Shown here: piece after piece, positions 3,972 to 26,127 of the stretch | Numbering within the stretch: the first letter of the stretch is position 1 | Layout of the letters: every line of letters begins with the position of its first letter | Assembly (NCBI RefSeq): GCF_014837235.1 | Contig: NZ_JACYFT010000001.1 | Span: forward strand, 477,688-509,687 | Direction of reading: 5' to 3' | DNA from: Limnohabitans radicicola | Lineage (GTDB): Bacteria > Pseudomonadota > Gammaproteobacteria > Burkholderiales > Burkholderiaceae_C | Length of the DNA stretch: 32,000 nucleotides | Made by a program: the position numbers and the translations under genes | The notes under the pieces: generated by a model | The model's database searches: none | Seen by the model: the letters and a program-made list of their open reading frames with translations, nothing else | What the model was told of the DNA's origin: nothing

Positions 3972-4054
3972 CGCCACCACAGGCCATGCGCCTGTGCCCT
4001 GCCGCTGTGCCAACCTCGCGTGGCACCTGTCCCGTTCCTTGTGAGTGCCTTGCC

Positions 4055-14056: not shown

Positions 14057-15040
14057 TTGTCTGCCCCCGAAAACAGTACCGCCACTGTCCTCGCCCTGGT
14101 CGCCCAGGACATGGGCGAAGTCGATCGCGTGATCGCCCAGCGCCTGGATTCGGGTGTGCCCCTCGTCGGCGAAGTGGCCCGCTACATCATCTCGGCAGGA
14201 GGCAAACGCCTACGCCCCGTCTTGCTCTTGCTGACCTGCGGCGCCCTGAGCTACACCGGATCGCAGCGTCACAACCTGGCTGCGGTGGTGGAATTCATCC
14301 ACACCGCCACCTTGCTGCACGACGATGTGGTTGACGAGTCCACCCTGCGCCGTGGCCGCCCGACGGCCAATGAGAGTTTCGGCAACCCTGCCAGCGTGCT
14401 GGTGGGCGATTTTTTGTACTCCCGAGCCTTCCAGATGATGGTCGACGCCGACAGCATGCGGGTGATGCAGGTGCTGTCCGACGCCACCAACGTGATCGCC
14501 GAAGGCGAAGTGTTGCAGTTGATGAACATGCACGACGCTTCGCTCGACGAAGAAGGCTACCTGCGCGTCATCCGCTCCAAAACCGCCAAACTGTTTGAGG
14601 CCAGCGCCCGACTGGGGGCCATTCTGGCTGGCAGCGACGCCGCTGTTGAAGCCGCCTGCGCCGATTACGGGCAGGCATTGGGCACGGCGTTCCAGGTCAT
14701 CGACGATGTGCTGGACTACGACGGCAACGCGGCCGAAATGGGCAAAAACCTGGGCGACGACCTGCGTGAGGGCAAAGCCACCTTGCCTTTGATTTTGGCC
14801 ATGCAACGCGGTAACTCGACCCAGAGCCAGACCGTGCGCGAAGCCATTGAAAGCGGCAGCGTGGACAAACTGAGCGAAATCGTGGCGATTGTTCGCGAGA
14901 CAGGCGCCTTGGACGGCACACGACAAGCCGCCGCCGCAGAAGCCCAGCGCGCCATTGACGCGGCCATGCAATTGCCCGACAACCGGTACCGCACAGCCAT
15001 GGTGACGCTGGCGTCACAGTTGCTGGAGCGTCGGACTTGA
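14057..15040 (+). CDS. ispB: octaprenyl-diphosphate synthase (trans-polyprenyl diphosphate synthase)
   Basis: Two DDxxD motifs ([19 protein letters not shown]). Divergent from rplU as in many proteobacteria. Start uncertain: TTG 14057 gives about 327 aa, matching IspB length; ATG 13937 would consume the rplU promoter region. Confidence 0.85.
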
Positions 15041-15490: not shown

Positions 15491-15538
15491 TGGTCGGGGT
15501 GAGAGGATTCGAACCTCCGGCCTCTACGTCCCGAACGT
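15491..15538. repeat. distal att repeat (displaced copy of the tRNA-Pro 3' end)
   Basis: tggtcggggtgagaggattcgaacctccggcctctacgtcccgaacgt matches 26051-26098 exactly; identity ends at 15539/26099. Confidence 0.95.
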
Positions 15539-15551
15539 GCCTGACTATGGT

Positions 15552-15574
15552 CTAAGCTGTTGATTTTATTGAAG
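15552..15574 (+). repeat. 23-bp island-end motif CTAAG(C/T)TGTTGATTT(T/C)ATTGAAG, left copy
   Basis: 21/23 identity with 26024-26046 in direct orientation. A partial third copy (AAGTTGTTG..ATTGAA) lies at 17844-17861. Confidence 0.85.
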
Positions 15575-15584
15575 TTTTACGTTA

Positions 15585-15606
15585 TGTAGTTTAGTTTGTA
15601 GTTTAT
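15585..15606 (+). repeat. two tandem TGTAGTTTA(G/T) motifs (candidate arm-type integrase/RDF sites)
   Basis: TGTAGTTTAG at 15585-15594 and TGTAGTTTAT at 15597-15606, period 12 bp. Confidence 0.85.
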
Positions 15607-15691
15607 TAAAGGCTGAATGCAAACCAAAGAAAAGACGCTGTCTAAGCTGCAAAAACGTGTCTGTCAGTGTGCCATAAAAGCCTCTACGTTC

Positions 15692-15712
15692 AGCGTCGAT
15701 TTTTAGGACGCT
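15692..15712 (+). repeat. 21-bp palindromic element, copy a: AGCGTC GATTTTTAG GACGCT
   Basis: Perfect 6-bp arms (7 bp with the flanking C/G). One mismatch to copies at 20614-20634 and 20141-20161 (reverse). Intergenic. Confidence 0.9.
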
Positions 15713-15840
15713 GCTACGTCATTGAAGCACAGCAGATGGGCTCTGCTGCCCCCACACAAGCCCTACAGCACGTCGATTGCCGACGCTGTGCTCGCCTCGT
15801 TAAAGGGCTCTGCCATCGACAGCTTGTAGGGTGGTTAGAT

Positions 15841-15872
15841 TAAAAGTGGTGGGGGTTAGGTTCTCCACCACC
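15841..15872 (-). terminator. rho-independent terminator downstream of the 161-aa minus-strand gene
   Basis: On the minus strand: GGTGGTGG-agaacctaac-CCCCACCAC followed by TTTTAAT. Confidence 0.6.
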
Positions 15873-15876
15873 TTCG

Positions 15877-15914
15877 AAAACTGCAGCAGAAATTTTTTGA
15901 GTGCTGCAACCATT
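15877..15914. repeat. about 38-bp CTGCAGCA hairpin repeat, copy A
   Basis: aaaacTGCAGCAgaaattttttgagTGCTGCAaccatt has a 7-bp stem. It aligns in blocks with 19244-19283 (aaaactgcagca / gaaattt / gag / ctgcaa). Confidence 0.7.
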
Positions 15915-15937
15915 TTCACTATGCCTCTCATCCCCAC

Positions 15938-16423
15938 TCACCACTTTTTTGCAGTAGCTATGTTTCTCGCCGAAAAACCCACTTTTTTGGGTGGTTTGAG
16001 CGGATTTGATGGCAACGCTTGGGGCTGTGCCGATGCTGTGGGCGCTGTGGGCGCTGTGGGTTGGGCTGAGGGTAAGGGCTGCTGATGTGCTGTGGGTTGG
16101 GTAGTCTTTGCCGAAAGCTGTTGAGGGGTGGCTGCACGTGGGGGCTGCTGCTGAACACCCACAGCTGATTTCTGTTGCTGCTGTTGTGGGGGTGCTGCTT
16201 TCTTCGGTGGGGGTGGTGGGGGTAAGCGAAGCGAGGGCGCTGCACCCTTAGTCTTTCGTTTGCCACCCTTCAATTTTGCTGCACGTTGCGCCGCTGCTTT
16301 GCGTTCTGCTTCATCGCGTGCTTGCTGATTGATAGCAGCCCACACGTTGTCATTGATGAGCTTCCATAGTGCCATCTGCTCTTCTGCACTTGCAATTTCC
16401 ATCATTCTCATCGCCATCTCCAT
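15938..16423 (-). CDS. hypothetical protein: helical N-terminus, Lys-rich linker, Pro/Gln-rich low-complexity tail
   Basis: 161-aa ORF followed by terminator-like hairpins. The tail contains PPPPPPKKAAPPQQQQQ and PTAPTAPTA. No family recognised. Confidence 0.5.
   Translation of the reverse strand: MEMAMRMMEIASAEEQMALWKLINDNVWAAINQQARDEAERKAAAQRAAKLKGGKRKTKGAAPSLRLPPPPPPKKAAPPQQQQQKSAVGVQQQPPRAATPQQLSAKTTQPTAHQQPLPSAQPTAPTAPTASAQPQALPSNPLKPPKKVGFSARNIATAKKW
16035..16061. repeat. three tandem copies of a 9-bp unit (GCTGTGGGC) inside the P/Q-rich CDS
   Basis: gctgtgggc gctgtgggc gctgtgggt encodes PTAPTAPTA on the minus strand. Unit length is in frame. Confidence 0.85.
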
Positions 16424-16476
16424 TTCTTATATTTATCGTCAAAGCCTTTGGGTGGTGATGCATTAACTGACTTTGG

Positions 16477-16485
16477 TGCTATAGT
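16477..16485 (+). promoter_or_regulatory. candidate extended -10 (TGCTATAGT) for the 2TM/HEPN-like operon
   Basis: TGn-TATAGT lies 65 nt upstream of ATG 16550. No good -35. Motif-level call only. Confidence 0.3.
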
Positions 16486-16549
16486 TGTTGGGGCATTGAG
16501 CTGTCTTTAGCCTCTTGTTAATGTCTTCGAAAGAATGAGGAGTTTGATT

Positions 16550-16759
16550 ATGTCTAAGATTTTTCCAAAATGGATTAGTCCTCGCGCATTTTTTCTTGCT
16601 GCTTTGATTTCTGTTCTTCCTTCTTTTGGAGCTATAAATTTCAGCGGCTTTTCTGCAGAAGTAATTGTTCAGCTATTGCTGCAAGCATTCTTCGGCGGGT
16701 TGTTTTGGGGCTGGATTTTTACGAAATTTCTACCCAAATATTTCGGTAAAAAAGATTGA
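16550..16759 (+). CDS. small 2-TM membrane protein, hypothetical
   Basis: ATG 16550 preceded by GAGGAG at 7-nt spacing. 69 aa with two hydrophobic helices (FFLAALISVLPSFGAI; LLLQAFFGGLFWGWIF). Its stop abuts the next gene. Confidence 0.55.
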   Translation: MSKIFPKWISPRAFFLAALISVLPSFGAINFSGFSAEVIVQLLLQAFFGGLFWGWIFTKFLPKYFGKKD

Positions 16760-16764
16760 ATTGT

Positions 16765-17238
16765 ATGGAGTTAATGCCTGCCGAACTTAGGGCTGAATGG
16801 GCTCCTATTGTTGGTAATTTTATTATCGAGTTTGGAGAATTGGAGTCTGCAATTAGTGAGGTTGTTAGACTGAGTTCAACCCCCAGCCAATTTGAAATTT
16901 TATATACTCTTAACTTTGTTAAGAGGTTGGATTTGGCGGAGGCTGCTCTTGTTGAATGGAATAATCATTCCAAAGAGTTAATAAAAGAAGCTTTTAAGAA
17001 AATAAGAGATGTAGTGGCGAAAAGAAATATTATTGCTCACAATGGTTTTTCCATTAATATTTATGAGTTAGAGGGAGGTGAGACTCGGTATGAGTTTGGA
17101 ATGACGCCTTCGTATAAGCAAAGTAGTATTTGGCTTACTAAAGAGCATTTAGAGCGAGATACGGCATTGCTTGTAGAGTTTATTAAATCAATTATTGAGT
17201 GGATTCCCAAAGACTGCGTTGCAAATAAGGTTAGGTAG
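16765..17238 (+). CDS. hypothetical protein with HEPN-like R-x4-H motif (candidate RNase/toxin)
   Basis: About 157 aa, predicted helical. KRNIIAHNG (R 17023-17025 to H 17038-17040) fits the HEPN RNxxxH signature. Start ambiguous (TTG 16756, ATG 16765 or 16774). Lies in a very AT-rich block. Confidence 0.5.
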   Translation: MELMPAELRAEWAPIVGNFIIEFGELESAISEVVRLSSTPSQFEILYTLNFVKRLDLAEAALVEWNNHSKELIKEAFKKIRDVVAKRNIIAHNGFSINIYELEGGETRYEFGMTPSYKQSSIWLTKEHLERDTALLVEFIKSIIEWIPKDCVANKVR

Positions 17239-17322
17239 GTTTCAGATTTACGACACTCCTTAAACCATACTGAGCTTCCAACAGCCACTTTGCGCGGTTG
17301 ATGTCCTCTGCTTGCACTTGTG

Positions 17323-17373
17323 TTCGAACGAGGACGGTGCTGCCACCGCCCATTCGAACGCGGACGGTAGCAG
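17323..17373. repeat. two direct repeats TTCGAACG(A/C)GGACGGT(G/A).. with 30-bp period
   Basis: ttcgaacgaggacggtgctgc (17323-17343) and ttcgaacgcggacggtagcag (17353-17373), in a convergent intergenic region. Confidence 0.8.
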
Positions 17374-17388
17374 TAAAGCTCAGCAGCT

Positions 17389-17829
17389 TCATTTCTTAAA
17401 GCCACTACGCAGCTTGTTGCTGACAGCGTCAATCTGTGCATCTAAGCTGCCCTCTTCGACAGCTTGCTTGACGATTTCCAACGTGGGCAGCAGCTCATCG
17501 ACGGACGACAGCTCAATGGCATTTTTCCCTTTGCTGATTTCGATGACTTTGGCACCGTAGCGGATTGACAGATTGAGCTTGCCGTCCGCTGTTTTCCACC
17601 ACCACTGTTTCACCTTCTTTGCCGTTTCGATGCTGCGGCGTTCGCCAGTCTCTGCATCTTTTACAGATTTGAATTTGGTAGGTGCATACACACGCCCTTC
17701 GGCTTGTGCTCGTGCCAACTGCATCTGCTCGAACAGCTTTGTGCTCAGCTTGTTGCGACGCTGCTGCGTAGGGGTTTGAGCTGTAGCACGCTTAGCTACG
17801 ACGAATTTGAGGTTTGCGAGTGCAGTCAT
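17389..17829 (-). CDS. hypothetical protein (146 aa, basic, WWW motif)
   Basis: GGAG lies 6 nt upstream of the ATG. RRNKLSTKLFEQMQLA...KVKQWWWKTADGKLNLSIRYGAK...AVEEGSLD resembles uncharacterised proteins I recall from proteobacterial integrative elements; no family name asserted. Confidence 0.6.
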   Translation of the reverse strand: MTALANLKFVVAKRATAQTPTQQRRNKLSTKLFEQMQLARAQAEGRVYAPTKFKSVKDAETGERRSIETAKKVKQWWWKTADGKLNLSIRYGAKVIEISKGKNAIELSSVDELLPTLEIVKQAVEEGSLDAQIDAVSNKLRSGFKK

Positions 17830-17843
17830 TCAATGCTCCAAAA

Positions 17844-17869
17844 AAGTTGTTGTGTATTGAATGTAGTTT
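17844..17869 (+). promoter_or_regulatory. partial island-end motif plus TGTAGTTT in a divergent promoter region
   Basis: AAGTTGTTGtgtATTGAA immediately followed by TGTAGTTT (17862-17869), between divergent genes starting at 17829 (-) and 17969 (+). Confidence 0.6.
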
Positions 17870-17968
17870 CAGAGCTTGGCGATGGACAACCGAAAAAGGC
17901 TGCATCGTGTGGCTCTTTTCTCACACCGAAAATTCGTCTCCTTTTATTTGGTTTTGCTAAATAGCTGT

Positions 17969-18496
17969 ATGAAGCCAACAGCAGAACACGTCCGAAATTT
18001 CCTCAACGAGCACAGCCAACACATCACGCATTGGGCAGTGGCACACACGCCGTTCCACACCTACAAAGCAACACCGCAGCAGCTCGAAAGGATGAAGCAC
18101 GAGGCACAGAATCAGTGTCGATTTTTTCGACGCTCGTTCAGCCAATTTCTCTATCAAGCAAAGGCACTCCGCAAACCCGAAATCTACAGCCCACTACTCA
18201 TCACAACCATCGAAGGCGTAAAAGCATCTCCATTCACACAAGACACCATCCACTTCAATTTCGCAATAGGCAACGTCCCACGCTGCATCAGCACTGACGA
18301 GCTACGGCAAGTGTTCGAGCATTGTTGGGTTGATAAGGCAAAGCTCAGCGGCAAGAACTTATGGCTGCAAGCTGCAGACTGCAGCCGCAACACGCATTGG
18401 CTCAACTACATCACCAAAGAAGCAGAGATAGGCAACATAGACACGTGGGATTTCCAAAACACGCAAATCCCACACGTCGCACTCGCAGCAGACTGA
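17969..18496 (+). CDS. hypothetical protein, possibly HUH/Rep-like (YagK/YfjJ / inovirus Gp2-like layout) with a degenerate HUH
   Basis: 175 aa from ATG 17969; alternative starts are TTG 17876 and ATG 17882. The order PLLITTIEG ... IHFNFAIGN ... WLNYITKE resembles Rep motifs I / II (H-U-H, here H-F-N) / III (YxxK). Weak, motif-level only. Confidence 0.4.
   Translation: MKPTAEHVRNFLNEHSQHITHWAVAHTPFHTYKATPQQLERMKHEAQNQCRFFRRSFSQFLYQAKALRKPEIYSPLLITTIEGVKASPFTQDTIHFNFAIGNVPRCISTDELRQVFEHCWVDKAKLSGKNLWLQAADCSRNTHWLNYITKEAEIGNIDTWDFQNTQIPHVALAAD
18114..18134 (+). repeat. 21-bp palindromic element, copy c: AGTGTC GATTTTTTC GACGCT (inside the Rep-like CDS)
   Basis: Two mismatches to the copy at 20614-20634. 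Encodes QCRFFRR in the plus-strand gene. Confidence 0.8.
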
Positions 18497-18556
18497 AGTT
18501 AGCTGTGCAGTTCCCACAAGCCCACGCAGATGATGGGTAGTGCTGTCGCTTTGATG

Positions 18557-19183
18557 TTATTTCTGAGACTTTGCAGAAGATAGATGCATTGACTGATGCT
18601 CCCAAATTAAATCAAGCACCGCTTTGTCTGGCTTGCAGATAGATGGCTTGCCTACTGAGGTGAATATGACAGCTCGCAAGTGTTCGCAGTCCTTCCGACT
18701 TTGAATTCCTTCATTGAAGAAGCCAGACTTTTGGATGTTTTGTGTCCAATCATATTGTCCTTGTAGTCCGATGAGGAATGTTGCTGATTCACCGTGCTGT
18801 AGCTTGTGTGGGAGTTGGGGATTTCTAACAACAGAGTCAGACGTAGAGACGTCTTGTATTGCCCATCGTTTCTTTTTGAAAGGCAAACTCAAGCACCAAG
18901 CAACATTCACAATAGTCGCTGGTGTTTCACCTTCATTGACAGCATTGAATGTTAGGTATTCTGGTGCTTTACCTTGCTGTTGATACCAGACTATGACTCT
19001 GAGAGAGCAAGAAATCTTTAGCAAAGGAGATGGACGTCGATTGGCAAGGAATAGGCTCACTACAACTGCAGCGAGAGTTCCAACGGCGCTTCCAATTTGG
19101 GCGTAATCAACGAGTGTTTGAGGATAGAAGCTTGGCTCAGTCATCATTCGTATGTGTTGTGTGTGGTTATAGACTTTATACAT
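18557..19183 (-). CDS. hypothetical membrane-anchored protein (single N-terminal TM)
   Basis: 208-aa ORF with TM helix IGSAVGTLAAVVVSLFLA followed by a beta-rich-looking domain. Weak SD. No family recognised. Confidence 0.5.
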   Translation of the reverse strand: MYKVYNHTQHIRMMTEPSFYPQTLVDYAQIGSAVGTLAAVVVSLFLANRRPSPLLKISCSLRVIVWYQQQGKAPEYLTFNAVNEGETPATIVNVAWCLSLPFKKKRWAIQDVSTSDSVVRNPQLPHKLQHGESATFLIGLQGQYDWTQNIQKSGFFNEGIQSRKDCEHLRAVIFTSVGKPSICKPDKAVLDLIWEHQSMHLSSAKSQK

Positions 19184-19243
19184 CTACATCCGTAGTGGTG
19201 GGTAAAAATCACCATACAGACGAAAAAATACCCTATACCTAAA

Positions 19244-19283
19244 AAAACTGCAGCACAGAAATTTGAGGACTGCAAACCCAATT
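19244..19283. repeat. about 40-bp CTGCAGCA repeat, copy B
   Basis: aaaactgcagcacagaaatttgaggactgcaaacccaatt aligns with 15877-15914. On the minus strand it is followed by a run of 7 T. Confidence 0.65.
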
Positions 19284-19425
19284 CGAGCTGCAAGCACGCA
19301 GCATCACGCAGACGCAGCAAAACACGCTACAGCACGCTTTTAGGGGCGCGTGCAGCGTTGGGTAGCGAGTAGGGTGCTAAATAGCTTGTAGGGCTTGTTT
19401 TGCTCAGTGGCGCTGCTGCCACACG

Positions 19426-19456
19426 AAACTACATAAAAGTAGGGTTTTCTGTAGTT
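19426..19456. promoter_or_regulatory. inverted pair of TGTAGTT(T) motifs upstream of the small recombinase gene
   Basis: AAACTACA (19426-19433) and TGTAGTT (19450-19456), about 110 bp upstream of ATG 19569. Confidence 0.6.
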
Positions 19457-19568
19457 CTTGCATAACACGTTGAATTTATTGAGATTTTTGCACGTGCCTT
19501 TTTCGGTTGCTCTTTGAAAACAAAGAAAACAAACTGCAGCTCTGTATTTATTTGATTTGGAGCAACAG

Positions 19569-20141
19569 ATGGCAAAAGCAAAAACACTCAGCAGCACAGA
19601 GCTTCGTCGTGTGCTCGACTACATCGCAACACGCAAACACGCAGCACGCAATAGGGCGACGCTGCTACTCACACATTGGGGCGGAATGCGAGTAGGGGAA
19701 GTGGCAGCACTACGCTACTGCGACGTGCTCAACAGCGACGGCACAGTGAAGGACGAAATCAACTTGAGCGCCGAACAGACGAAGGGCAAGCACAGCAGAA
19801 CGGTGTTTATCAGCGGCAAGCTACGCAAAGAGGTTGCCGCTTACATTGCTGCTCATCCGATGAAGGACGGAGAGCACGCTCTTTTCTACACGCAGAAGAA
19901 TCCCAAACGAGGATTCACAGCCAACACGCTCACACAATACTTTCTGCACCTCTACCGCAATGTGGGTATCGACGGCGCAAGTAGCCACAGCGGACGCCGC
20001 ACGTTTGCCACTGTGCTCAGTTCGAAGGGCGTGGGCATACGTGTGCTGATGCGTGCAATGGGACATCGCAACATCAGCACCACTATCGGCTACGTGGATG
20101 CATCGGACGATATGCTGCGGAAGGCTGTTGATTTGGTGTGA
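19569..20141 (+). CDS. small tyrosine recombinase, catalytic domain only, FimB/FimE-like size and layout
   Basis: ATG 19569 has GGAG 7 nt upstream. 190 aa with a complete catalytic set: R (GMRVGE), HxxR (HSGRRTFAT), H and Y (GHRNISTTIGY). The HAARN...LLL...G.R..E pattern resembles FimB. Confidence 0.8.
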   Translation: MAKAKTLSSTELRRVLDYIATRKHAARNRATLLLTHWGGMRVGEVAALRYCDVLNSDGTVKDEINLSAEQTKGKHSRTVFISGKLRKEVAAYIAAHPMKDGEHALFYTQKNPKRGFTANTLTQYFLHLYRNVGIDGASSHSGRRTFATVLSSKGVGIRVLMRAMGHRNISTTIGYVDASDDMLRKAVDLV

Positions 20142-20161
20142 GCGTCCCAAAAATCGACGCT
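20141..20161 (-). repeat. 21-bp palindromic element, copy d (reverse orientation): AGCGTC GATTTTTGG GACGCT
   Basis: Plus strand reads AGCGTCCCAAAAATCGACGCT; with flanks it forms a 9-bp stem (GTGAGCGTC/GACGCTCAC, 20138-20164). The stop codons of both convergent genes (20139-20141 and 20161-20163) lie within this extended stem. Confidence 0.9.
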
Positions 20162-20907
20162 CACAACTCACTGTTGGGGAACTGCCCTTTCGCTGTATTG
20201 GCAATGATGGCACGTGCTTGCTTGACGTATCGACTCACAGTCATTGTCATAGTGGCGTGCTTTTTACGAGTGTCATAGGCGTTGTCCCACTTGTGCGGCA
20301 TTGCATTGGGCACGAGTTTGAGACTTTCGCCGATTGCCCATAAAGGCTTGCGCTGCTCTTTGGGTTGGGCATCGTTGGCAGCAACAGCGTCATAGACATC
20401 GAGCATCACCTTTAGGCTGTGCTGCGTGAAGTTGCGATGCAGAGGGTAGCGTGCTGTGCTTGAAGCTGTCTGCAGCGACTTTCGCCCACGTTTGCCCTTG
20501 TGCTCCGTCTGCAACAAGTCAGCGAACTTCTTCTGCAGATGCCGACGCCCCAAATCCATATTGACAGCGACGAACAAGACGTTGCAGCCCCAACGCTTGT
20601 TCATCTCCGCTGCAGCGTCGATTTTTTGGACGCTTAGCTCCAATGGCTCTTCGGCGAACAAATAGTCGCCCTTGTTGTTAGGTGCTCCCCACCAGCTGCG
20701 GAAGTCATCACTACGCACGTCGCCGAAGTCCGCATACAGCTCAGCAAGCTCGCCAACACCCCCACGCTCACAGCAAGCAAGGTAGTCAGCGTTCCTTCGC
20801 AGATATGCCCACCACCAATAGTAGGGGCTGCGCTGCTGCAGATGTATGGGCGATGGCTTGTGCTTCGTCCCAATCAGCGGATGGATGGCTAAGAACTTTT
20901 TGCGCAT
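20161..20907 (-). CDS. putative transcriptional regulator-domain protein (N-terminal SPYYWWWAYLRRNADY motif)
   Basis: 248 aa. The N-terminal aromatic-rich xYLRRNxxY motif resembles the WEFLRRN-type motif of uncharacterised regulator-domain proteins from mobile elements (recalled, not searched). The C-terminal 150 aa is unassigned. Confidence 0.55.
   Translation of the reverse strand: MRKKFLAIHPLIGTKHKPSPIHLQQRSPYYWWWAYLRRNADYLACCERGGVGELAELYADFGDVRSDDFRSWWGAPNNKGDYLFAEEPLELSVQKIDAAAEMNKRWGCNVLFVAVNMDLGRRHLQKKFADLLQTEHKGKRGRKSLQTASSTARYPLHRNFTQHSLKVMLDVYDAVAANDAQPKEQRKPLWAIGESLKLVPNAMPHKWDNAYDTRKKHATMTMTVSRYVKQARAIIANTAKGQFPNSEL
20614..20634 (+). repeat. 21-bp palindromic element, copy e: AGCGTC GATTTTTTG GACGCT (inside the 248-aa CDS)
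   Basis: Exactly 7 in-frame codons (SVQKIDA on the minus strand), placed right after the N-terminal domain. Inverted relative to copy d, which lies 452 bp away. Confidence 0.9.
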
Positions 20908-20926
20908 CGCAAGATGTTATCAGCTA

Positions 20927-20963
20927 ATTCGCTGCGAATACGTTGCTGCCTAAAAAATAGGCA
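20927..20963. promoter_or_regulatory. two short palindromes in the divergent promoter region (candidate operators)
   Basis: ATTCGC-t-GCGAAT (20927-20939) and TGCCTA-aaaaa-TAGGCA (20947-20963), between gene starts at 20907 (-) and 21058 (+). Confidence 0.4.
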
Positions 20964-21057
20964 AAGAGGCGCATACTAACACTTGTGCTGAGGGACATAA
21001 CCAAACAAGTCAAGCAGCACGTTTTATCAACTCTCTTTATTTCAAAAGGAAATCAAA

Positions 21058-21885
21058 ATGGCTAAATTTTCTAAAGCTCAGTCTGCTGCAATGGCAATCG
21101 CAACCAACGCAAATGTCAAAGCAGTAATCGAAGAGGCAAACAAGCTGTCAGTGCAGCGTGAAAAGTTCGAAAACGAAGAACTCGCACGCAGCAATAAGGC
21201 TCTGTATGCAATTCTCGAAAAGGTATATGGGTTGTTTAATAAAGCAGTCAAAGATGGCTGTATTAAAGAAACGGCGAAGGAAATGCGTTCGATGCTGAAA
21301 GAGCGTGGCGTTAAAGTGCAGAGCAATACGCCAGCCCTTACTTGTTTCGTTCGCTTTGTTTTTAACAGCGACAGAAAGCGTGCATACAACTACGCAAGCA
21401 CGCTGATGGCAGCAGTAGATGCAGACATCAAGCCCGAAAACCTTGCTGCTTTTATTGAAGGCAGCAATGGAGTGGAGGAGTGCAAAAAGGCATACAAGAT
21501 GAAAGACGAGACAAAGCAGCGAGTTGAGGCTGTAGCTGCAGCAAGCGTCGATGTAATGGACATTCTTAAAACGATGCCCTCTGCAGCCAACATCACTCTG
21601 CCAAATGCAAGCGTCGATTTGAGCGACGGTGTGGATTTCGCATTCATCGTTGCTCGTAGTGTCGGCAACGGCAAATTCGAACTTCTGCGTGCTGTGCCTA
21701 AATCGACGAAGGCTATGCAAACTGCTGCTGTTAAAGAGCTTGCTAAAAACCTAATCGAAGTCGCAGCCAAAGCACAGACTGAAACTAAGGAGCAGAAAGT
21801 AAAAGCGACTACTGAAAAGGCAGTCAAGTCAATTTCTGCTAAGTCTGCTGCAAAGATGACACTGAAAGAGTTGGAAGCAGCGTGA
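21058..21885 (+). CDS. hypothetical protein (275 aa, helical, Ala/Lys-rich C-terminus)
   Basis: AGGA lies 8 nt upstream of the ATG. Co-oriented with the downstream AAA+ gene. No family recognised. Confidence 0.6.
   Translation: MAKFSKAQSAAMAIATNANVKAVIEEANKLSVQREKFENEELARSNKALYAILEKVYGLFNKAVKDGCIKETAKEMRSMLKERGVKVQSNTPALTCFVRFVFNSDRKRAYNYASTLMAAVDADIKPENLAAFIEGSNGVEECKKAYKMKDETKQRVEAVAAASVDVMDILKTMPSAANITLPNASVDLSDGVDFAFIVARSVGNGKFELLRAVPKSTKAMQTAAVKELAKNLIEVAAKAQTETKEQKVKATTEKAVKSISAKSAAKMTLKELEAA
21610..21630 (+). repeat. diverged copy of the palindromic element: AGCGTC GATTTGAGC GACGGT (inside the 275-aa CDS)
   Basis: Shares the exact 11-mer AGCGTCGATTT with copies a, d and e. The right arm has one mismatch. 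Confidence 0.6.
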
Positions 21886-21943
21886 GCAATATGTGGGGTG
21901 CTGCAATGCACTCCACCTTTAATTAAATTATTTGGAGGTTATT

Positions 21944-22591
21944 ATGGGCAAGATTGTTGATACTGAAAGCAAATATCGTCCTCGTTCGCTTGACGAGTTT
22001 GTTTTCCCTAACAAGCACGTTGAGGAAGTTGCAAAGGCGTATGGTAGTGGTGAAATAACTCGTCCGCTGATTTTGAGTGGAACGAATGGCACTGGTAAAA
22101 GTCTCTTGTCAGAGCTAATACCGCAGCAGATTGAGGGATTTGAACCGCAAATCAATCGAGTGCGTTCGTGTGATTTGAATAGCAGCAAAGAAATCTACAG
22201 TCAATTTACACGCAACAAGCAATTCGACAAGCTATTCACTCCCTACAACCAACGCTTTAGCTACAACATCATTGAAGAAGTGAATTTCGATACCAAAGCA
22301 AGGGACGCTTTTCGAGTAGTGCTCGATGAGTATAGGGGGGTAGATATGACGATTATGACTACGAACGAGATAGGGAAAATTGACATTGGTGTTCGTAGTC
22401 GATGTGAGACGCTGCATGTGCCACCGTGCGAACCACAAGTGTTTTTCCCTCGTGCCAAAGCCATTATCGAAGCTGAGGGCTACAGCATAGACGACGACGC
22501 CCTAATAGCTGCGTTGGATGCTGTATATGACGCCAAGCCAGATAATCGGCGCTACTATCAGACAATCGACGAGATACTGCGTAAAGCGTAG
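21944..22591 (+). CDS. AAA+ ATPase, RFC/clamp-loader-like, truncated (no collar domain)
   Basis: GGAGG lies 5 nt upstream of ATG 21944. KYRPRSLDEFV (clamp-loader N-terminus), Walker A GTNGTGKS, Walker B-like IIEEVN, sensor-1 TTN and an SRC motif (VRSRCE). Only 215 aa. Confidence 0.75.
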   Translation: MGKIVDTESKYRPRSLDEFVFPNKHVEEVAKAYGSGEITRPLILSGTNGTGKSLLSELIPQQIEGFEPQINRVRSCDLNSSKEIYSQFTRNKQFDKLFTPYNQRFSYNIIEEVNFDTKARDAFRVVLDEYRGVDMTIMTTNEIGKIDIGVRSRCETLHVPPCEPQVFFPRAKAIIEAEGYSIDDDALIAALDAVYDAKPDNRRYYQTIDEILRKA

Positions 22592-22615
22592 TCTATAACG
22601 TCAATTTAATCGACA

Positions 22616-23062
22616 CTAAAAGCCCGCCTTGTGCGGGTTTTTTACCATTATGTTGGTATTTCCTTGATTTACAAAAAGATGCTCCACCAATTCAGCAAAT
22701 TCCTCATCATTCAGATAAGACGGAAGAAATTTATACTCCTGCAAATCTTTATTCATAGGCGTTATGTCGATAAGTTCGCCGCTGACCATTCTAACTATAG
22801 AGTGTGATACAAATATTACGAAAGGGCTTGCTACGGCATCAACGCAAATCCATCCTCTTATCGGATTTGCATTTTTATTTATATTGCAATACTCATCTAC
22901 ATTGTCGTGACAGTGGTTTTTAGTAGCCGAAAAACTTTCATCATCAACGCACCGCTTAACTATCAATTGAGCCTCTGATATTTTTGATATCAAAAATTTC
23001 CCGTAATCCTCAATCTGTCTTTGCGTGCAGCAACCTTTTGCAAGCCCTTCATACCTCAGCAT
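22616..23062 (-). CDS. hypothetical small protein with an ordered Cys...His...Asp pattern (possible papain/transglutaminase-like thiol hydrolase)
   Basis: 148 aa from MLRYEG. Its ATG overlaps the upstream TGA by 1 nt (TGATG). NHCHDNVDEYC ... PIRGW ... VSHSIV ... GELIDITP has spacing reminiscent of a C-H-D triad. Speculative. Confidence 0.5.
   Translation of the reverse strand: MLRYEGLAKGCCTQRQIEDYGKFLISKISEAQLIVKRCVDDESFSATKNHCHDNVDEYCNINKNANPIRGWICVDAVASPFVIFVSHSIVRMVSGELIDITPMNKDLQEYKFLPSYLNDEEFAELVEHLFVNQGNTNIMVKNPHKAGF
22618..22643. terminator. rho-independent terminator for the AAA+ operon, overlapping the 3' end of the convergent CDS
   Basis: AAAGCCCGC-cttgt-GCGGGTTTTTT. The hairpin also encodes the last residues (NPHKAGF) of the minus-strand gene. 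Confidence 0.75.
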
Positions 23063-24447
23063 CACTGCCACTTTTGATAGCTATCCGTTATAGTTGGATG
23101 CTTTGAAGACAGACTCTTTTTTAACTCTGCAACAAGCTCGTCGCTTGCGTATATCTCATTCATATTCATCTGCTTTTGGAAAAAAGTGACATTATGTTTG
23201 GCGTCTGACACGTTTGTCGAGGCTATTACCGCCCAAGCATGCGCATATATTTTATTCGCGGCCACACCCTCTCCCTTCCAATACAGCGACGAGAGTGAGT
23301 GTTGAGCCTTTGCACTACCCAAATATGCAGCCTCTCGCATCAGCTTAAAGGCATCCTCCAGCTTTCGCTCTTTTCCGTATGTTCCGTTATAGCTAATATT
23401 CGCGAGTTCATAGATTGAATTGGCGTCGCCTTTGTTAGCCTTTGCCTCCAACTCCCTATACGCCAATGCATTATGTCCCAGCATTTTATCGTTTACCGCT
23501 TTGGACTTAAGCGCCGTAAATCTCTCTTCTATATATTTCGCCTCTGCTCGTTTGATATCACCCTCTGATTGAGCCAAAGATTTCGCCCAAACACCTTTAT
23601 CTTTTCTATTTGACTCGATTTCCTCTAATGCAGTAGCATAAAGCAAATTAATCTCTTCATTGGATAGATCATGTACTTTGACGTCGGGCTTACTCGAATC
23701 ATTTAATGCATCACCTACCTTCGATTCGAATTTGTCGCGCTCCTCGCCAGTAGAGATTGCCGAATACGCATCTTCCATAAGTGGGATTTTATTGGGCTGC
23801 AATTTATTAAAGCCAGCATTCCCGTTAGATAAATCCCTCAATCCCGCTTGACTTGACTCTTCAGTTTTTGCCTTACCGAGCATAACGATAATTCCCCATA
23901 GCACCGCTGGAAATACTATCAAATTTGCTATTATGAACTGCACTATTTTTTCATATCTTATTTTCAACCCAGCCAGCGGAAAACTAATCAATTCATTAAA
24001 AATTCCCGTCAAGCCAATGCCAATGGAAATCATTAAGATGAGGATAAGGGCAGATTGAACTTTTGATTTGTATTTCTGCCTCAACCTCTTCGCAAAATAA
24101 AAAGCCGCTCCGAAGCCCAATATGGAGGCTATTAATACGGGTATGAATGCACTCATCAAACTCACCTCCTCAATATTTTTGCCCACATGCGTAGAATCTT
24201 TTCCCACTACTGCAGATGCAGACATGCCCTTTGACATAGCTTCGTTATAGGCGACGAATCCGCAGGCATACCCCCCACTGGGAAGTGGTATCGGAGCGTA
24301 ATATGATTCCACTCCGCACTTCCATGAATCCTTGACAAAGAATATTTCTGGATATTTTTTAATTGCTTTATTCAAGGCTTCGGCTTCAGTTACATTGTCA
24401 TTAACTTTTGCCGAATCACCATTTGGTAGTGGTAAGTATTTCGCCAT
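23062..24447 (-). CDS. 3-TM membrane protein with C-terminal Sel1-like (SLR/TPR) repeats
   Basis: 461 aa. TM helices LMSAFIPVLIASILGFGAAFYFA, ALILILMISIGIGLTGIF and IVQFIIANLIVFPAVLWGIIVML. SLR consensus in GSAKAQHSLSSLYWKGEGVAANKIYAHAW. Lowest-GC part of the window. Confidence 0.7.
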   Translation of the reverse strand: MAKYLPLPNGDSAKVNDNVTEAEALNKAIKKYPEIFFVKDSWKCGVESYYAPIPLPSGGYACGFVAYNEAMSKGMSASAVVGKDSTHVGKNIEEVSLMSAFIPVLIASILGFGAAFYFAKRLRQKYKSKVQSALILILMISIGIGLTGIFNELISFPLAGLKIRYEKIVQFIIANLIVFPAVLWGIIVMLGKAKTEESSQAGLRDLSNGNAGFNKLQPNKIPLMEDAYSAISTGEERDKFESKVGDALNDSSKPDVKVHDLSNEEINLLYATALEEIESNRKDKGVWAKSLAQSEGDIKRAEAKYIEERFTALKSKAVNDKMLGHNALAYRELEAKANKGDANSIYELANISYNGTYGKERKLEDAFKLMREAAYLGSAKAQHSLSSLYWKGEGVAANKIYAHAWAVIASTNVSDAKHNVTFFQKQMNMNEIYASDELVAELKKSLSSKHPTITDSYQKWQ

Positions 24448-24456
24448 TTACAGCCT

Positions 24457-25884
24457 TTACTTTCTTTGTCTTTTGCTCTGCAACATCTCAATATTCATCT
24501 CACCTTCTAAGTGGGACGCATAGAAACGCTCAATCATTTCCGTTGATGTGCGTGCGTTGCGTGCGAGTGTGAGCAAGTCCAAACCCTCGCCATAAAGCAA
24601 ACGGTACATTATGCAAGTGTGTCGTAGGCTGTAAAGGCTGCGCTCTTCCCCACGTGCCCCTTCTGCAAGCCCACAGTGAGCAAGCAAGACGCTGAACTGA
24701 CGCTGTAGTTGTGTCAGTGCTGCACCCCTACGCTTTTCAATCTGTTCCTTTGTGTCCGCTGCAGACGTGCGCCCATACGAGGGCAGAAACACGTAGTCCT
24801 CTGCTGTCGCTCTATTCTTCCGCTTGTCGTCGCTCCAATGCAGCGCCTTCTGCCGACGGTAGTAATGCACAGCAGCAGCCATCGACACAATAGGCTTGTC
24901 GTGCTTCTTGCTTGTGGGCAGCGACATACGCAGATAGGTATGCACGCCCTCAATTACCTCAATGTGCTTGTGCTGCATCCACTTGATGTCCGTTGGGCGT
25001 ATGAAGCTGTTCGTCATAAAGACGATGAGGTTCCGCAAGTCCTCTGTCATCTCCACACGCCGCAGCAGTTGGCTCGCTGCAATCTTCTGCTGTAGTGCCT
25101 TCTGTGCCGCAGCACGTGGCTTGTAGGTGGAGGGCTGTCGTTGGGCTGTGAAGATTTCCTCTTTGCCGTTGGCATCGACGAACTTGCGTATCTCCCACGT
25201 TTGCCCACTGAGCTTGCGTGCTGCACTCCACAGCTTGCGGTATTCCTTTGTGTTGAACCAACCGCGCGGTGCATCCACCTTTTTGACTTTGGGGAACTGC
25301 GGCACAGCTTCGATGTAGCCCCTGCGCTGTGCATAGCCCAACGTCTTGCGGACAAGCCCCAAATAGTTGCTGATGGTGGGTGCTGTGAGCTTGTCGGCAC
25401 TGAGCTTGTTGATGAACTTCTCAATGACGAAGTAGTCGATGCTCTTCAAGTCGTAGCTGCGGAAGTAGGGCAGCACTTCCTTCTGCAGCCGATACCTATC
25501 GTTCTGCTGCATCATTGCCGACATCTCACCGCGCTGCACCTTTGCGTCTTGCTGTTCGAGCAAAGCCGCAGCGCACATCTCAAAGTCTGCACGACTGTTG
25601 AGCACCAGCCCTTGTCGCTGCTTGTAATTGACTTCGTCGTAGAAGTCTTTGGCGAACTCGATTGCACGCCGCTTGTCTGTTTCCTTTGTGCTGCGACGAA
25701 GGATTTTTCCGTCAGCGTAGTAGCGCACCCACCAAAAGGGCGACGCTGCAAGCTGATAGACAACGAGCTTCTTTGGATAGTTGGGAACGTGCGTGAGGTT
25801 GAGGGCAGAAGTGCGATGCTTCGTCGCACCACCGTCGATTTGCACGACGCTGAGAACTGCCTTCTTTGCTGCTGCACGTGCCAT
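24457..25884 (-). CDS. int: tyrosine-type site-specific integrase (island integrase)
   Basis: 475 aa. C-terminal catalytic region (FIRPTDI..., LYSLRHTCIMY, ...MIERFYASHL). N-terminal arm-binding-like WWVRYYADGKILRRSTK. Located next to the tRNA target. Confidence 0.9.
   Translation of the reverse strand: MARAAAKKAVLSVVQIDGGATKHRTSALNLTHVPNYPKKLVVYQLAASPFWWVRYYADGKILRRSTKETDKRRAIEFAKDFYDEVNYKQRQGLVLNSRADFEMCAAALLEQQDAKVQRGEMSAMMQQNDRYRLQKEVLPYFRSYDLKSIDYFVIEKFINKLSADKLTAPTISNYLGLVRKTLGYAQRRGYIEAVPQFPKVKKVDAPRGWFNTKEYRKLWSAARKLSGQTWEIRKFVDANGKEEIFTAQRQPSTYKPRAAAQKALQQKIAASQLLRRVEMTEDLRNLIVFMTNSFIRPTDIKWMQHKHIEVIEGVHTYLRMSLPTSKKHDKPIVSMAAAVHYYRRQKALHWSDDKRKNRATAEDYVFLPSYGRTSAADTKEQIEKRRGAALTQLQRQFSVLLAHCGLAEGARGEERSLYSLRHTCIMYRLLYGEGLDLLTLARNARTSTEMIERFYASHLEGEMNIEMLQSKRQRK
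25831..25851 (+). repeat. diverged copy of the palindromic element: ACCGTC GATTTGCAC GACGCT (inside the integrase CDS)
   Basis: Arms have one mismatch to the consensus. The spacer begins GATTT. Confidence 0.5.
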
Positions 25885-25975
25885 CTATGCAGCCCCCAAA
25901 GAAAAAAACACGCTGCAGATACGCTCCGCAACGTGTTTTTTGCAAACCAAAGAACTTATTTTTACGAAATCAAGC

Positions 25976-26005
25976 ATTTGTAGTTTAGCTTAAACTAAAC
26001 TACAA
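25976..26005. repeat. inverted pair of TGTAGTTTAG motifs (12-bp arms, 6-bp spacer) in the tRNA-proximal arm
   Basis: TTTGTAGTTTAG-cttaaa-CTAAACTACAAA, between the integrase start and the tRNA. Confidence 0.9.
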
Positions 26006-26023
26006 AACAGAGCAATCGAGTTG

Positions 26024-26046
26024 CTAAGTTGTTGATTTCATTGAAG
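26024..26046 (+). repeat. 23-bp island-end motif, right copy
   Basis: ctaagttgttgatttcattgaag has 21/23 identity to 15552-15574. Confidence 0.85.
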
Positions 26047-26050
26047 AAAT

Positions 26051-26127
26051 TGGTCGGGGTGAGAGGATTCGAACCTCCGGCCTCTACGTCCCGAACGTAG
26101 CGCTCTACCAGGCTAAGCTACACCCCG
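26051..26127 (-). tRNA. tRNA-Pro (anticodon CGG)
   Basis: Reverse complement CGGGGTGTAGCTTAGCCTGGTAGAGCGCTACGTTCGGGACGTAGAGGCCGGAGGTTCGAATCCTCTCACCCCGACCA folds as a cloverleaf. Anticodon loop TTCGGGA, T-loop GGTTCGAATCC, encoded CCA. Confidence 0.95.

Follow-up and report, generated by a model that had tools for sequence, protein, structure and literature searches.

The 32,000-nucleotide stretch of Limnohabitans radicicola DNA analyzed in this study (the window; contig NZ_JACYFT010000001.1, positions 477,688 to 509,687) contains a mobile island that carries at least seven copies of a short palindrome. Two of these copies, here called d and e, form an inverted pair beside rec190, the gene for a 190-aa tyrosine recombinase, and an earlier note on this DNA proposed that recombination between them flips the intervening segment and thus switches p248, the neighboring gene for a 248-aa protein. 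As judged from substitution patterns in related islands (46 genome loci and 80 metagenome loci), the sites are shown to be functional DNA kept by selection, including at synonymous positions inside genes. Our tentative interpretation is that d and e belong to an island-wide set of sites for protein recognition or recombination that lie at the borders of modules, with rec190 as their probable reader. The phase-switch reading is not supported, because d and e are accompanied by at least five further copies and the segment between them is flipped in no relative.

Palindromic sites of the island

Site d (AGCGTCCCAAAAATCGACGCT, positions 20141-20161) is a 21-bp palindrome of the form AGCGTC-CCAAAAATC-GACGCT and is located where rec190 and p248 converge, between their stop codons. 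Site e (AGCGTCGATTTTTTGGACGCT, 20614-20634) is the 21-bp palindrome AGCGTC-GATTTTTTG-GACGCT and forms codons 92-98 of p248 (SVQKIDA), i.e., seven in-frame codons directly after the N-terminal domain, as the earlier note had described. The two sites match at 20 of 21 bases in the inverted orientation (95% complementary) with 452 nt between them, which confirms the inverted pair bracketing 20162-20613. The extended stem of d (GTGAGCGTC...GACGCTCAC, 20138-20164) comprises 10 bp with a predicted energy of -10.8 kcal/mol (z -6), and both convergent stop codons fall in its outer part, again in agreement with the earlier description. In the closest relative (L001, a Comamonadaceae metagenome-assembled genome with approximately 93% protein identity), a 1-kb two-gene insert parts the rec190 stop from d; the overlap of this stop with d is therefore incidental.

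The other copies are dispersed over the island. AGCGTCGATTTTTAGGACGCT (15692-15712) lies approximately 150 bp inside the left island end, and AGTGTCGATTTTTTCGACGCT (18114-18134) lies inside the gene for a 206-aa protein (17876-18496); their L001 homologues are at 4014 and 6548, respectively. Three weaker copies are AGCGTCGATTTGAGCGACGGT (21610-21630, codons 185-191 of p275), AACGTCAATTTAATCGACACT (22597-22617, just past the stop of an AAA+ ATPase gene), and ACCGTCGATTTGCACGACGCT (25831-25851, codons 12-18 of the integrase gene, with its L001 homologue at 14140). All seven window copies are present at homologous places in L001, in which d and e have the same orientation as in the window. The copies share the invariant core GTC-N9-GAC, which takes the form AGCGTC-GATTTTTNG-GACGCT in the window, and measure 21 bp with 6-8-bp arms and a 5-9-bp center. 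The motif AGCGTC-N9-GACGCT with at most one mismatch occurs six times in the window versus 0.11 times in shuffled sequences, and none of 100 shuffles reached six.

The constraint on the in-frame copies acts at the level of DNA. In fifteen p248 genes that share site e, the e codons have a synonymous-codon identity of 0.89, compared with a gene mean of 0.53, and rank 1-2 of 226 seven-codon windows. The p275 site (codons 185-191) ranks 1 of 260 windows, with a synonymous conservation of 0.905 against a gene mean of 0.584. Among relatives, the change of GTCGAT to GTCTAT in d is tracked by a synonymous change of the Ile codon ATC to ATA in e, and relatives that encode SVQRIDP by other codons have no palindrome. 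In L103, L104, L123, and L125, the compensated change from GTCG...CGAC to GTCC...GGAC is found in both the p248 site and the site of DUF6641, another core gene of the island. Sites placed in frame under such synonymous constraint provide a clean example of DNA-level selection inside genes.

Many related islands carry their own repeated class of palindrome, all of which are built on GTC-N9-GAC; the variants include GTGTCGTTTAAAACGACAC (six copies in L014), TGTCGGTTCAACCGACA, GTCCTTTWAAAGGAC, ACCGTC...GACGGT, and others. Their positions recur, either overlapping the p248 stop or just after the stops of DUF6641, the AAA+ gene, the integrase gene, and rec190. Members of the island family with as little as approximately 45% protein identity retain a site at the p248 stop or overlapping it.

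A further palindrome, TGCCTAAAAAATAGGCA, is found at 20947-20963 in the divergent promoter region of p248 and p275; its A-rich center resembles the site family, and its arms are GCC/GGC instead of GTC/GAC. Downstream of the rec190 stop in L068, the interval to p248 contains two tandem copies (AGCGTCGCGAAAATAGACGCT) with a spacing of approximately 20 bp. Locus L041 (1-15808) contains two tandem island copies or remnants with two rec190 and two DUF6641 genes, and three classes of palindrome are present (CGTCCAGNNACGGGACG, GTGTCGGGTTGACCCGACAC, and TGTCGTGTTRCACGACA).

Rearrangements at the sites and the proposed inversion in p248

A sign of recombination between e and d is a short contig, L127, which was reached through a truncated p248 protein of 124 aa (P0242). 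In L127, the p248 N-domain leads into one site (ACCGTCAAAACTATTGACGGTC), to which the 3' end of a convergent rec190 gene is directly joined. In L131, an intact relative, the ACCGTCAAAACTATTGACGGTC 22-mer is present twice as direct repeats (2080-2101 and 2562-2583), and the alignment of L127 with L131 runs up to the first copy and resumes at the second, with an overlap that is exactly the site. By this alignment, L127 is a precise e-by-d deletion product of an L131-type island; therefore, e and d can recombine, which truncates p248 after its N-domain. In L131 and L136, d equals e exactly, including the codon-dictated arms of e (ACC GTC ... GAC GGT), and the other sites have AGCGTC arms. This identity of d and e points to repeated exchange between copies.

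Other rearrangements also border on the sites. The identities of rec190 and p248 to those of the window are uncorrelated across loci (for example, 79% and 56% in L056, 70% and 45% in L059, and 48% and 63% in L014, respectively), and the two sides of d therefore differ in history. The distance from the p248 stop, with d, to the rec190 stop ranges from 24 bp to approximately 2 kb of cargo across loci. The alignment between the window and L001 breaks at 20134/20141 and at 22621, each adjoining a site, and cargo genes are inserted right beside sites. The block of p248, p275, and the AAA+ gene is inverted relative to rec190 in L014, L058, and L071 and is site-bounded in L014. Of 286 ends of high-identity alignments, 23 lie no more than 10 bp from a site, compared with a mean of 4.1 and a maximum of 12 in 200 random trials, in which the background consisted of random positions with intergenic location not controlled.

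The d-e segment (20162-20613, minus strand) encodes residues 99-248 of p248, i.e., its C-terminal half, and the gene itself (20161-20907, minus strand) begins with an N-terminal domain containing YYWWWAYLRRN. Inversion would join this N-domain to a short tail, as had been translated by hand; the computed tail is 38 aa and is encoded by the plus-strand open reading frame (ORF) 20138-20278, which reads M-SVPKIDA-HNSLLGNCPFAVLAMMARACLTYRLTVIVIVACFLRVS. This 46-aa antisense ORF is the sole opposite-strand ORF between d and e, and no alternative C-terminal cassette is present. The predicted inverted junctions join GACGCT to GCAGCGGAGATGAACAAGCG and CCCCAACAGTGAGTTGTG to AGCGTC; on the plus strand, ...AAAATCGACGCT is joined to GCAGCGGAGATGAACAAGCGTTGG and CCCCAACAGTGAGTTGTG to AGCGTCGATTTTT.

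We consider it improbable that rec190 reversibly inverts 20162-20613 such that p248 toggles between the full-length protein and the N-domain with the 38-aa tail as a form of phase variation. The pair matches at 20 of 21 bases and keeps the inverted orientation in 12 loci of the window clade with 68-100% p248 identity; e falls in a low-confidence interdomain linker of the p248 model (predicted local distance difference test [pLDDT] score of 62-70, residues 91-110) and is under synonymous constraint; the adjacent rec190 is catalytically complete; and the e-by-d deletion in L127 shows that truncation of p248 after the N-domain occurs. Against this, the N and C parts of p248 are collinear in all 46 genome and 80 metagenome loci, including approximately 10 close relatives (at least 89% identity) with an inverted d/e pair, and in none are they on opposite strands, so that the comparison of homologous islands suggested in the earlier note yields one orientation only. 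A search of a 5.8-billion-cluster protein database with p248 residues 1-98 plus the 38-aa tail, which admitted proteins of that size, gave no match over the predicted tail and no short form in the window clade. Two close relatives, L048 and L050, have no site d, the stop being followed directly by cargo, and L050 also has a mutated e. The pair consists of identical direct repeats (21-22-mers) in L131 and L136, and inversion is therefore not the conserved outcome. The copy at 15692 matches e at 20 of 21 bases, just as d does, and the tail is mere antisense of the C-terminal coding region. What stands of the proposed switch is that the pair is real, selected, and recombinogenic; its sites are not private to the pair, and the inverted form is found in no relative.

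The earlier description of the 248-aa protein as a regulator finds no counterpart in a DNA-binding domain or fold in the searches of Pfam, NCBIfam, PADLOC, PHROGs, and the PDB with Foldseek. The p248 relatives number 760 and are nearly all approximately 248 aa long. Pfam, NCBIfam, and PADLOC contain no family for p248, and PHROGs gives a single weak match of unknown function (E = 8e-4). The AlphaFold2 model (pLDDT 84.8) has no fold match in the PDB, with a best Foldseek E-value of 2.5. No p248 relative was found in the viral contigs searched, and the exact p248 of the window is not on record in the contig index. The truncated proteins P0251, P0261, and P0249 were set aside as uninformative, since they are decayed remnants without a palindromic junction. 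In P0266 (232 aa), the p248 N-domain (YYWWWAYLRR) is joined to a ProQ/FinO-family domain (PF04352); this protein, known from one short contig only, may represent a fusion or else a decayed remnant.

The recombinase and other candidate readers of the sites

The product of rec190 (19569-20141, plus strand; 190 aa) is a Xer-like tyrosine recombinase comprising the catalytic domain only, as indicated by its Pfam and PDB sequence matches. PF00589, the sole domain, covers residues 6-180 (E = 1.5e-26), and the best PDB matches are archaeal XerA (4a8e; E = 1.2e-13) and XerD, in each case over the catalytic half only. Residues 5-187 align with residues 103-273 of XerA and begin at the start of the XerA catalytic domain; the N-terminal core-binding domain that characterizes Xer proteins is absent. 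The catalytic set is complete, with R (GMRVGE), K (TKGKH), HxxR (HSGRR), H (GHRN), and Y (IGYV), and the small recombinase with a full R/HxxR/H/Y set had thus been read correctly. The class that had been assigned to it, FimB/FimE, holds for size and architecture (approximately 200 aa, catalytic domain only, R-K-HxxR-H-Y) but not for family membership, since rec190 scores 31.1 and 24.9 bits with the FimB/FimE-type models (NF007370 and NF007371), for which the cutoffs are 221 and 222. The NCBIfam models of XerA, XerC, and XerD give 58-79 bits (78.8 for XerA) versus cutoffs of 220-335, and integron integrase models give 19-38 bits versus cutoffs of 265 and 435. By these profile scores, rec190 is related to the Xer families but is an equivalog of none. 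The database contains 4788 relatives at E ≤ 1e-10, mostly of 190 aa. Small homologues of rec190 also occur in Legionella and Acinetobacter plasmids and in phiCbK-like Caulobacter phages.

In the reading that we prefer, the sites would be double-stranded DNA targets of a dimer of an island-encoded protein. The candidate binding protein is most likely rec190, which has a complete catalytic set and no core-binding domain, and the absence of this domain would fit unusually short sites. The recombinase would act at the site beside its own gene, for example, in the resolution of multimers of the excised circular island, and would occasionally act between copies, which would result in deletion, inversion, or module exchange. 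The d/e pair would be a by-product of this site network and not a switch dedicated to frequent phase changes; were d and e of the window to recombine, 20162-20613 would be inverted and p248 cut short, which would happen rarely or never in nature. Consistent with a link between recombinase and site, rec190 is kept even where the island integrase is a large serine recombinase. It is convergent with p248 in 60 of 74 loci, in most of which a site lies directly at its 3' end, and where rec190 and p248 are tightly arranged, the 24-26 bp between their stops are taken up entirely by the site.

Several observations weigh against rec190 as the reader. Islands with rec190 but without the module of p275 and the AAA+ ATPase have essentially no such palindromes, so the sites track this module better than they track rec190, and a search of the palindrome-free islands for a conserved alternative site beside rec190 found none. 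The rec190 tree does not follow the site class, its clades mixing classes; when site class was compared with the rec190, p248, and DUF6641 trees, most detected sites proved to be physically linked to p248. Many variants, such as GTCGTTTAAAACGAC, are almost perfectly symmetric, a property expected of the sites of dimeric repressors or of centromere-type sites more than of directional recombination sites. Were every copy an active crossover site, the island would be destroyed, since most copies are in direct orientation. As for the rearrangements, the L127 contig is 966 nt long with a low coverage of 1.7x, although it is recorded in two samples, and it could also be explained by slippage between the 22-bp direct repeats; the enrichment of alignment ends near sites, as stated above, is measured against random positions.

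These points bear on a rival that we regard as possible, if rather unlikely, namely, that the sites are dispersed binding sites of the p275/clamp-loader-like AAA+ module with a role in replication, partition, or global regulation, that rec190 is unrelated to them, and that the rearrangements arose by short-homology recombination. Of the 32 loci that have the module, 15 carry at least two strict palindromes, compared with 1 of the 19 that lack it (Fisher p = 0.002), although the module-free loci come from few related clades and offer few independent contrasts; p248, DUF6641, and p206 show no such association. Many variants are near-perfect palindromes, center included, islands without palindromes still keep rec190, and some functional copies are intragenic, a location that is common for parS and KorB sites. 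However, p275 belongs to no recognizable DNA-binding family in Pfam or the PDB, and the coordinates of the seven window copies place none of them in an intergenic region with a promoter. This rival also leaves unexplained why, in L131 and L136, d reproduces both the arms and the spacer of e exactly and the remaining sites do not. A further explanation, in which the palindromes act as nucleic acid hairpins (3'-end stabilizers, terminators, or single-stranded DNA hairpins), seems to us very improbable. Many copies follow stop codons directly, lineage changes keep the arms complementary, and the hairpin energies of d and the copy at 15692 are -10.8 and -9.2 kcal/mol, respectively; yet the conserved copy at 22597 has a hairpin energy of 0 kcal/mol, e (z -1.8) is no better than shuffled sequence, and all copies within an island have their arm sequence in common beyond what pairing demands. 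Terminators were rejected because T tails are missing from d and e and the site at 22597 is directly followed by a canonical terminator hairpin (22618-22642, AAAAGCCCGC-CTTGT-GCGGGTTTTT). An Rfam scan matched the tRNA only and assigned no RNA family to the sites.

A more far-reaching form of the rec190 reading, which appears doubtful to us, would make this an uncharacterized family of tRNA-gene islands of freshwater Burkholderiales in which a Xer-like recombinase without a core-binding domain uses a dispersed set of lineage-specific 21-bp palindromes, the in-frame copies within genes among them, as crossovers. Truncation of p248 would then be programmed, by inversion in the window lineage and by excision in the direct-repeat lineages, and would be accompanied by cassette-like exchange of modules, i.e., a self-encoded counterpart of the pdif system that is considered below.

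The island, its relatives, and known site systems

The mobile island with its ends extends over 15491-26127. A 48-bp direct repeat of the 3' half of the tRNA-Pro gene is found at 15491-15538 and 26051-26098, and the two copies are 10,560 bp apart (10.56-kb island). The integration target, tRNA-Pro(cgg) (26051-26127, minus strand), adjoins the gene for a 475-aa integrase (24457-25884, minus strand), and the GC content of the island is approximately 45-53% versus approximately 64% in the host flanks. These features (tRNA repeats, integrase, and low GC content) corroborate the earlier placement of the pair inside a mobile island. The Pfam matches of the integrase are SAM-like N-domains only, and the R, LRHT, and Y motifs are visible by eye at its C terminus; the idea of a split integrase that borrows the catalytic domain of rec190 was rejected on account of these motifs.

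From left to right, the island genes are a 161-aa ORF, a HEPN-like cargo ORF, a 53-aa ORF, DUF6641, a 206-aa ORF, a 208-aa ORF, rec190, p248, p275, a 219-aa AAA+ ATPase, two cargo genes, and the integrase; they are in mixed orientation with their own signals. The p275 gene (21058-21885, plus strand; 275 aa) and that of the clamp-loader-like AAA+ ATPase (21932-22591, plus strand; 219 aa) form a conserved module (21058-22591). The DUF6641 protein (17389-17829, minus strand; Pfam PF20346, E = 5e-17) is encoded by a core gene of the island family. Profiles of DUF6641 and p275 gave only noise against the PDB and Pfam, and no DNA-binding family was recognized in p248, p275, or DUF6641 in the Pfam, NCBIfam, and PDB searches. 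Nor did family and profile searches recognize any ParB/KorB-like or helix-turn-helix protein among the island proteins. The 206-aa ORF (17876-18496, plus strand) has no family match and is kept in several relatives at 32-97% identity; its IHFNFAIG and NYITKE motifs resemble the HUH and YxxK motifs of rolling-circle Rep proteins, to which it may be related. Two regions, 16436-17263 and 22622-24475, are swapped for other DNA in L001 and look like variable cargo slots. The first contains the HEPN-like 160-aa ORF with weak PADLOC matches to the HEPN domains of Csx1/Csm6, and the second contains a 151-aa ORF and a 461-aa Sel1-repeat membrane protein. In the PADLOC defense annotation, weak HEPN matches on this one cargo gene were the only result. 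A search of plasmid records found no similar DNA.

The hosts of the genome loci are Limnohabitans, Polynucleobacter, Comamonadaceae, and other freshwater Burkholderiales, and the shared core consists of DUF6641, rec190, p248 or a positional analogue, p275, the AAA+ ATPase, and the integrase. In L133 (121-1839) and L135 (209-1927), a 572-aa large serine recombinase takes the place of the tyrosine integrase, and the cores contain the same p248, a p275-like protein, and the small recombinase. In L011 (6979-12510), defense-like cargo follows p248, namely, proteins of 207 aa, 924 aa (methylase/restriction-like), and 704 aa (helicase-like); the islands appear to vary in the defense genes that they carry. 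A conserved small gene of approximately 110 codons (its product starts MNFY or MSFYFSAKVWNEQ) often follows d on the p248 strand with its own ribosome-binding site, as observed in L001 (8570-9553), L049, L051-L053, and L055; the window does not contain it. A literature search found no paper that mentions DUF6641 or describes the island family.

If rec190 uses the sites, it would represent a minimal type of tyrosine recombinase that acts on very short targets, and the site network would shape the modular makeup of a widespread, undescribed island family in abundant lake bacteria (Limnohabitans, Polynucleobacter, and Comamonadaceae). Such a system would be of interest for the biology of mobile elements and as a compact recombination tool. 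If the sites instead belong to a replication or partition module, they would be ordinary binding sites, and the "switch" would be a coincidence of two opposed copies.

Among known systems, FimB/FimE with fimS of E. coli is similar in that recombinases of approximately 190-200 aa with the catalytic domain only and the full catalytic set adjoin a short segment bounded by inverted repeats. Here, however, the segment is coding rather than a promoter, its repeats are two of at least seven copies, one orientation only is found in relatives, and the family cutoffs are not reached. The shufflons (Rci/sfx) and the invertible hsdS or tail-fiber segments likewise have an in-frame site at a protein domain border, whereas the island has no alternative C-terminal cassettes and inversion would provide only a 38-aa antisense-derived tail. 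Rearranged p248 forms of the shufflon type were found neither among the metagenome loci nor in the protein database search, and this type of variation was excluded, as there is no alternative C-terminal cassette and the C part is collinear in all relatives. Integrons have an IntI-type integrase of approximately 320 aa with an extra domain and co-oriented cassettes that each end in an attC site of 57-141 bp; this class was excluded because the integron integrase models give only 19-38 bits, the island sites are 21 bp long, and the genes are in mixed orientation. The KorB OB sites of RK2 and the parS sites of ParB are dispersed palindromic operators or centromere-like sites of plasmid regulators. 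They resemble the island sites in that several copies of one short palindrome, some of them inside genes, are spread over a mobile element, conserved, and covarying; the difference is that no ParB/KorB-like or helix-turn-helix protein is recognized in the island.

The sites also differ from Xer/dif sites, which are 28 bp long with two 11-bp arms and a 6-bp spacer (11-6-11); the island sites are 21 bp long with 6-8-bp arms, and some lie in frame in genes. In organization, Acinetobacter plasmids offer the closest analogue, the pdif or "dif module" system, whose modules are flanked by numerous Xer sites and undergo shuffling and inversion (PMC13141974, PMC9947245, and PMC6449649). Both systems combine a Xer-like catalytic domain with many short, partly palindromic sites that bound modules on a mobile element, and module exchange at the sites may be reflected in the island by break points and cargo adjoining sites (with intergenic position not controlled), a block inversion, and a precise deletion. 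Unlike in the pdif system, the putative recombinase of the sites is encoded by the island itself and has no core-binding domain.

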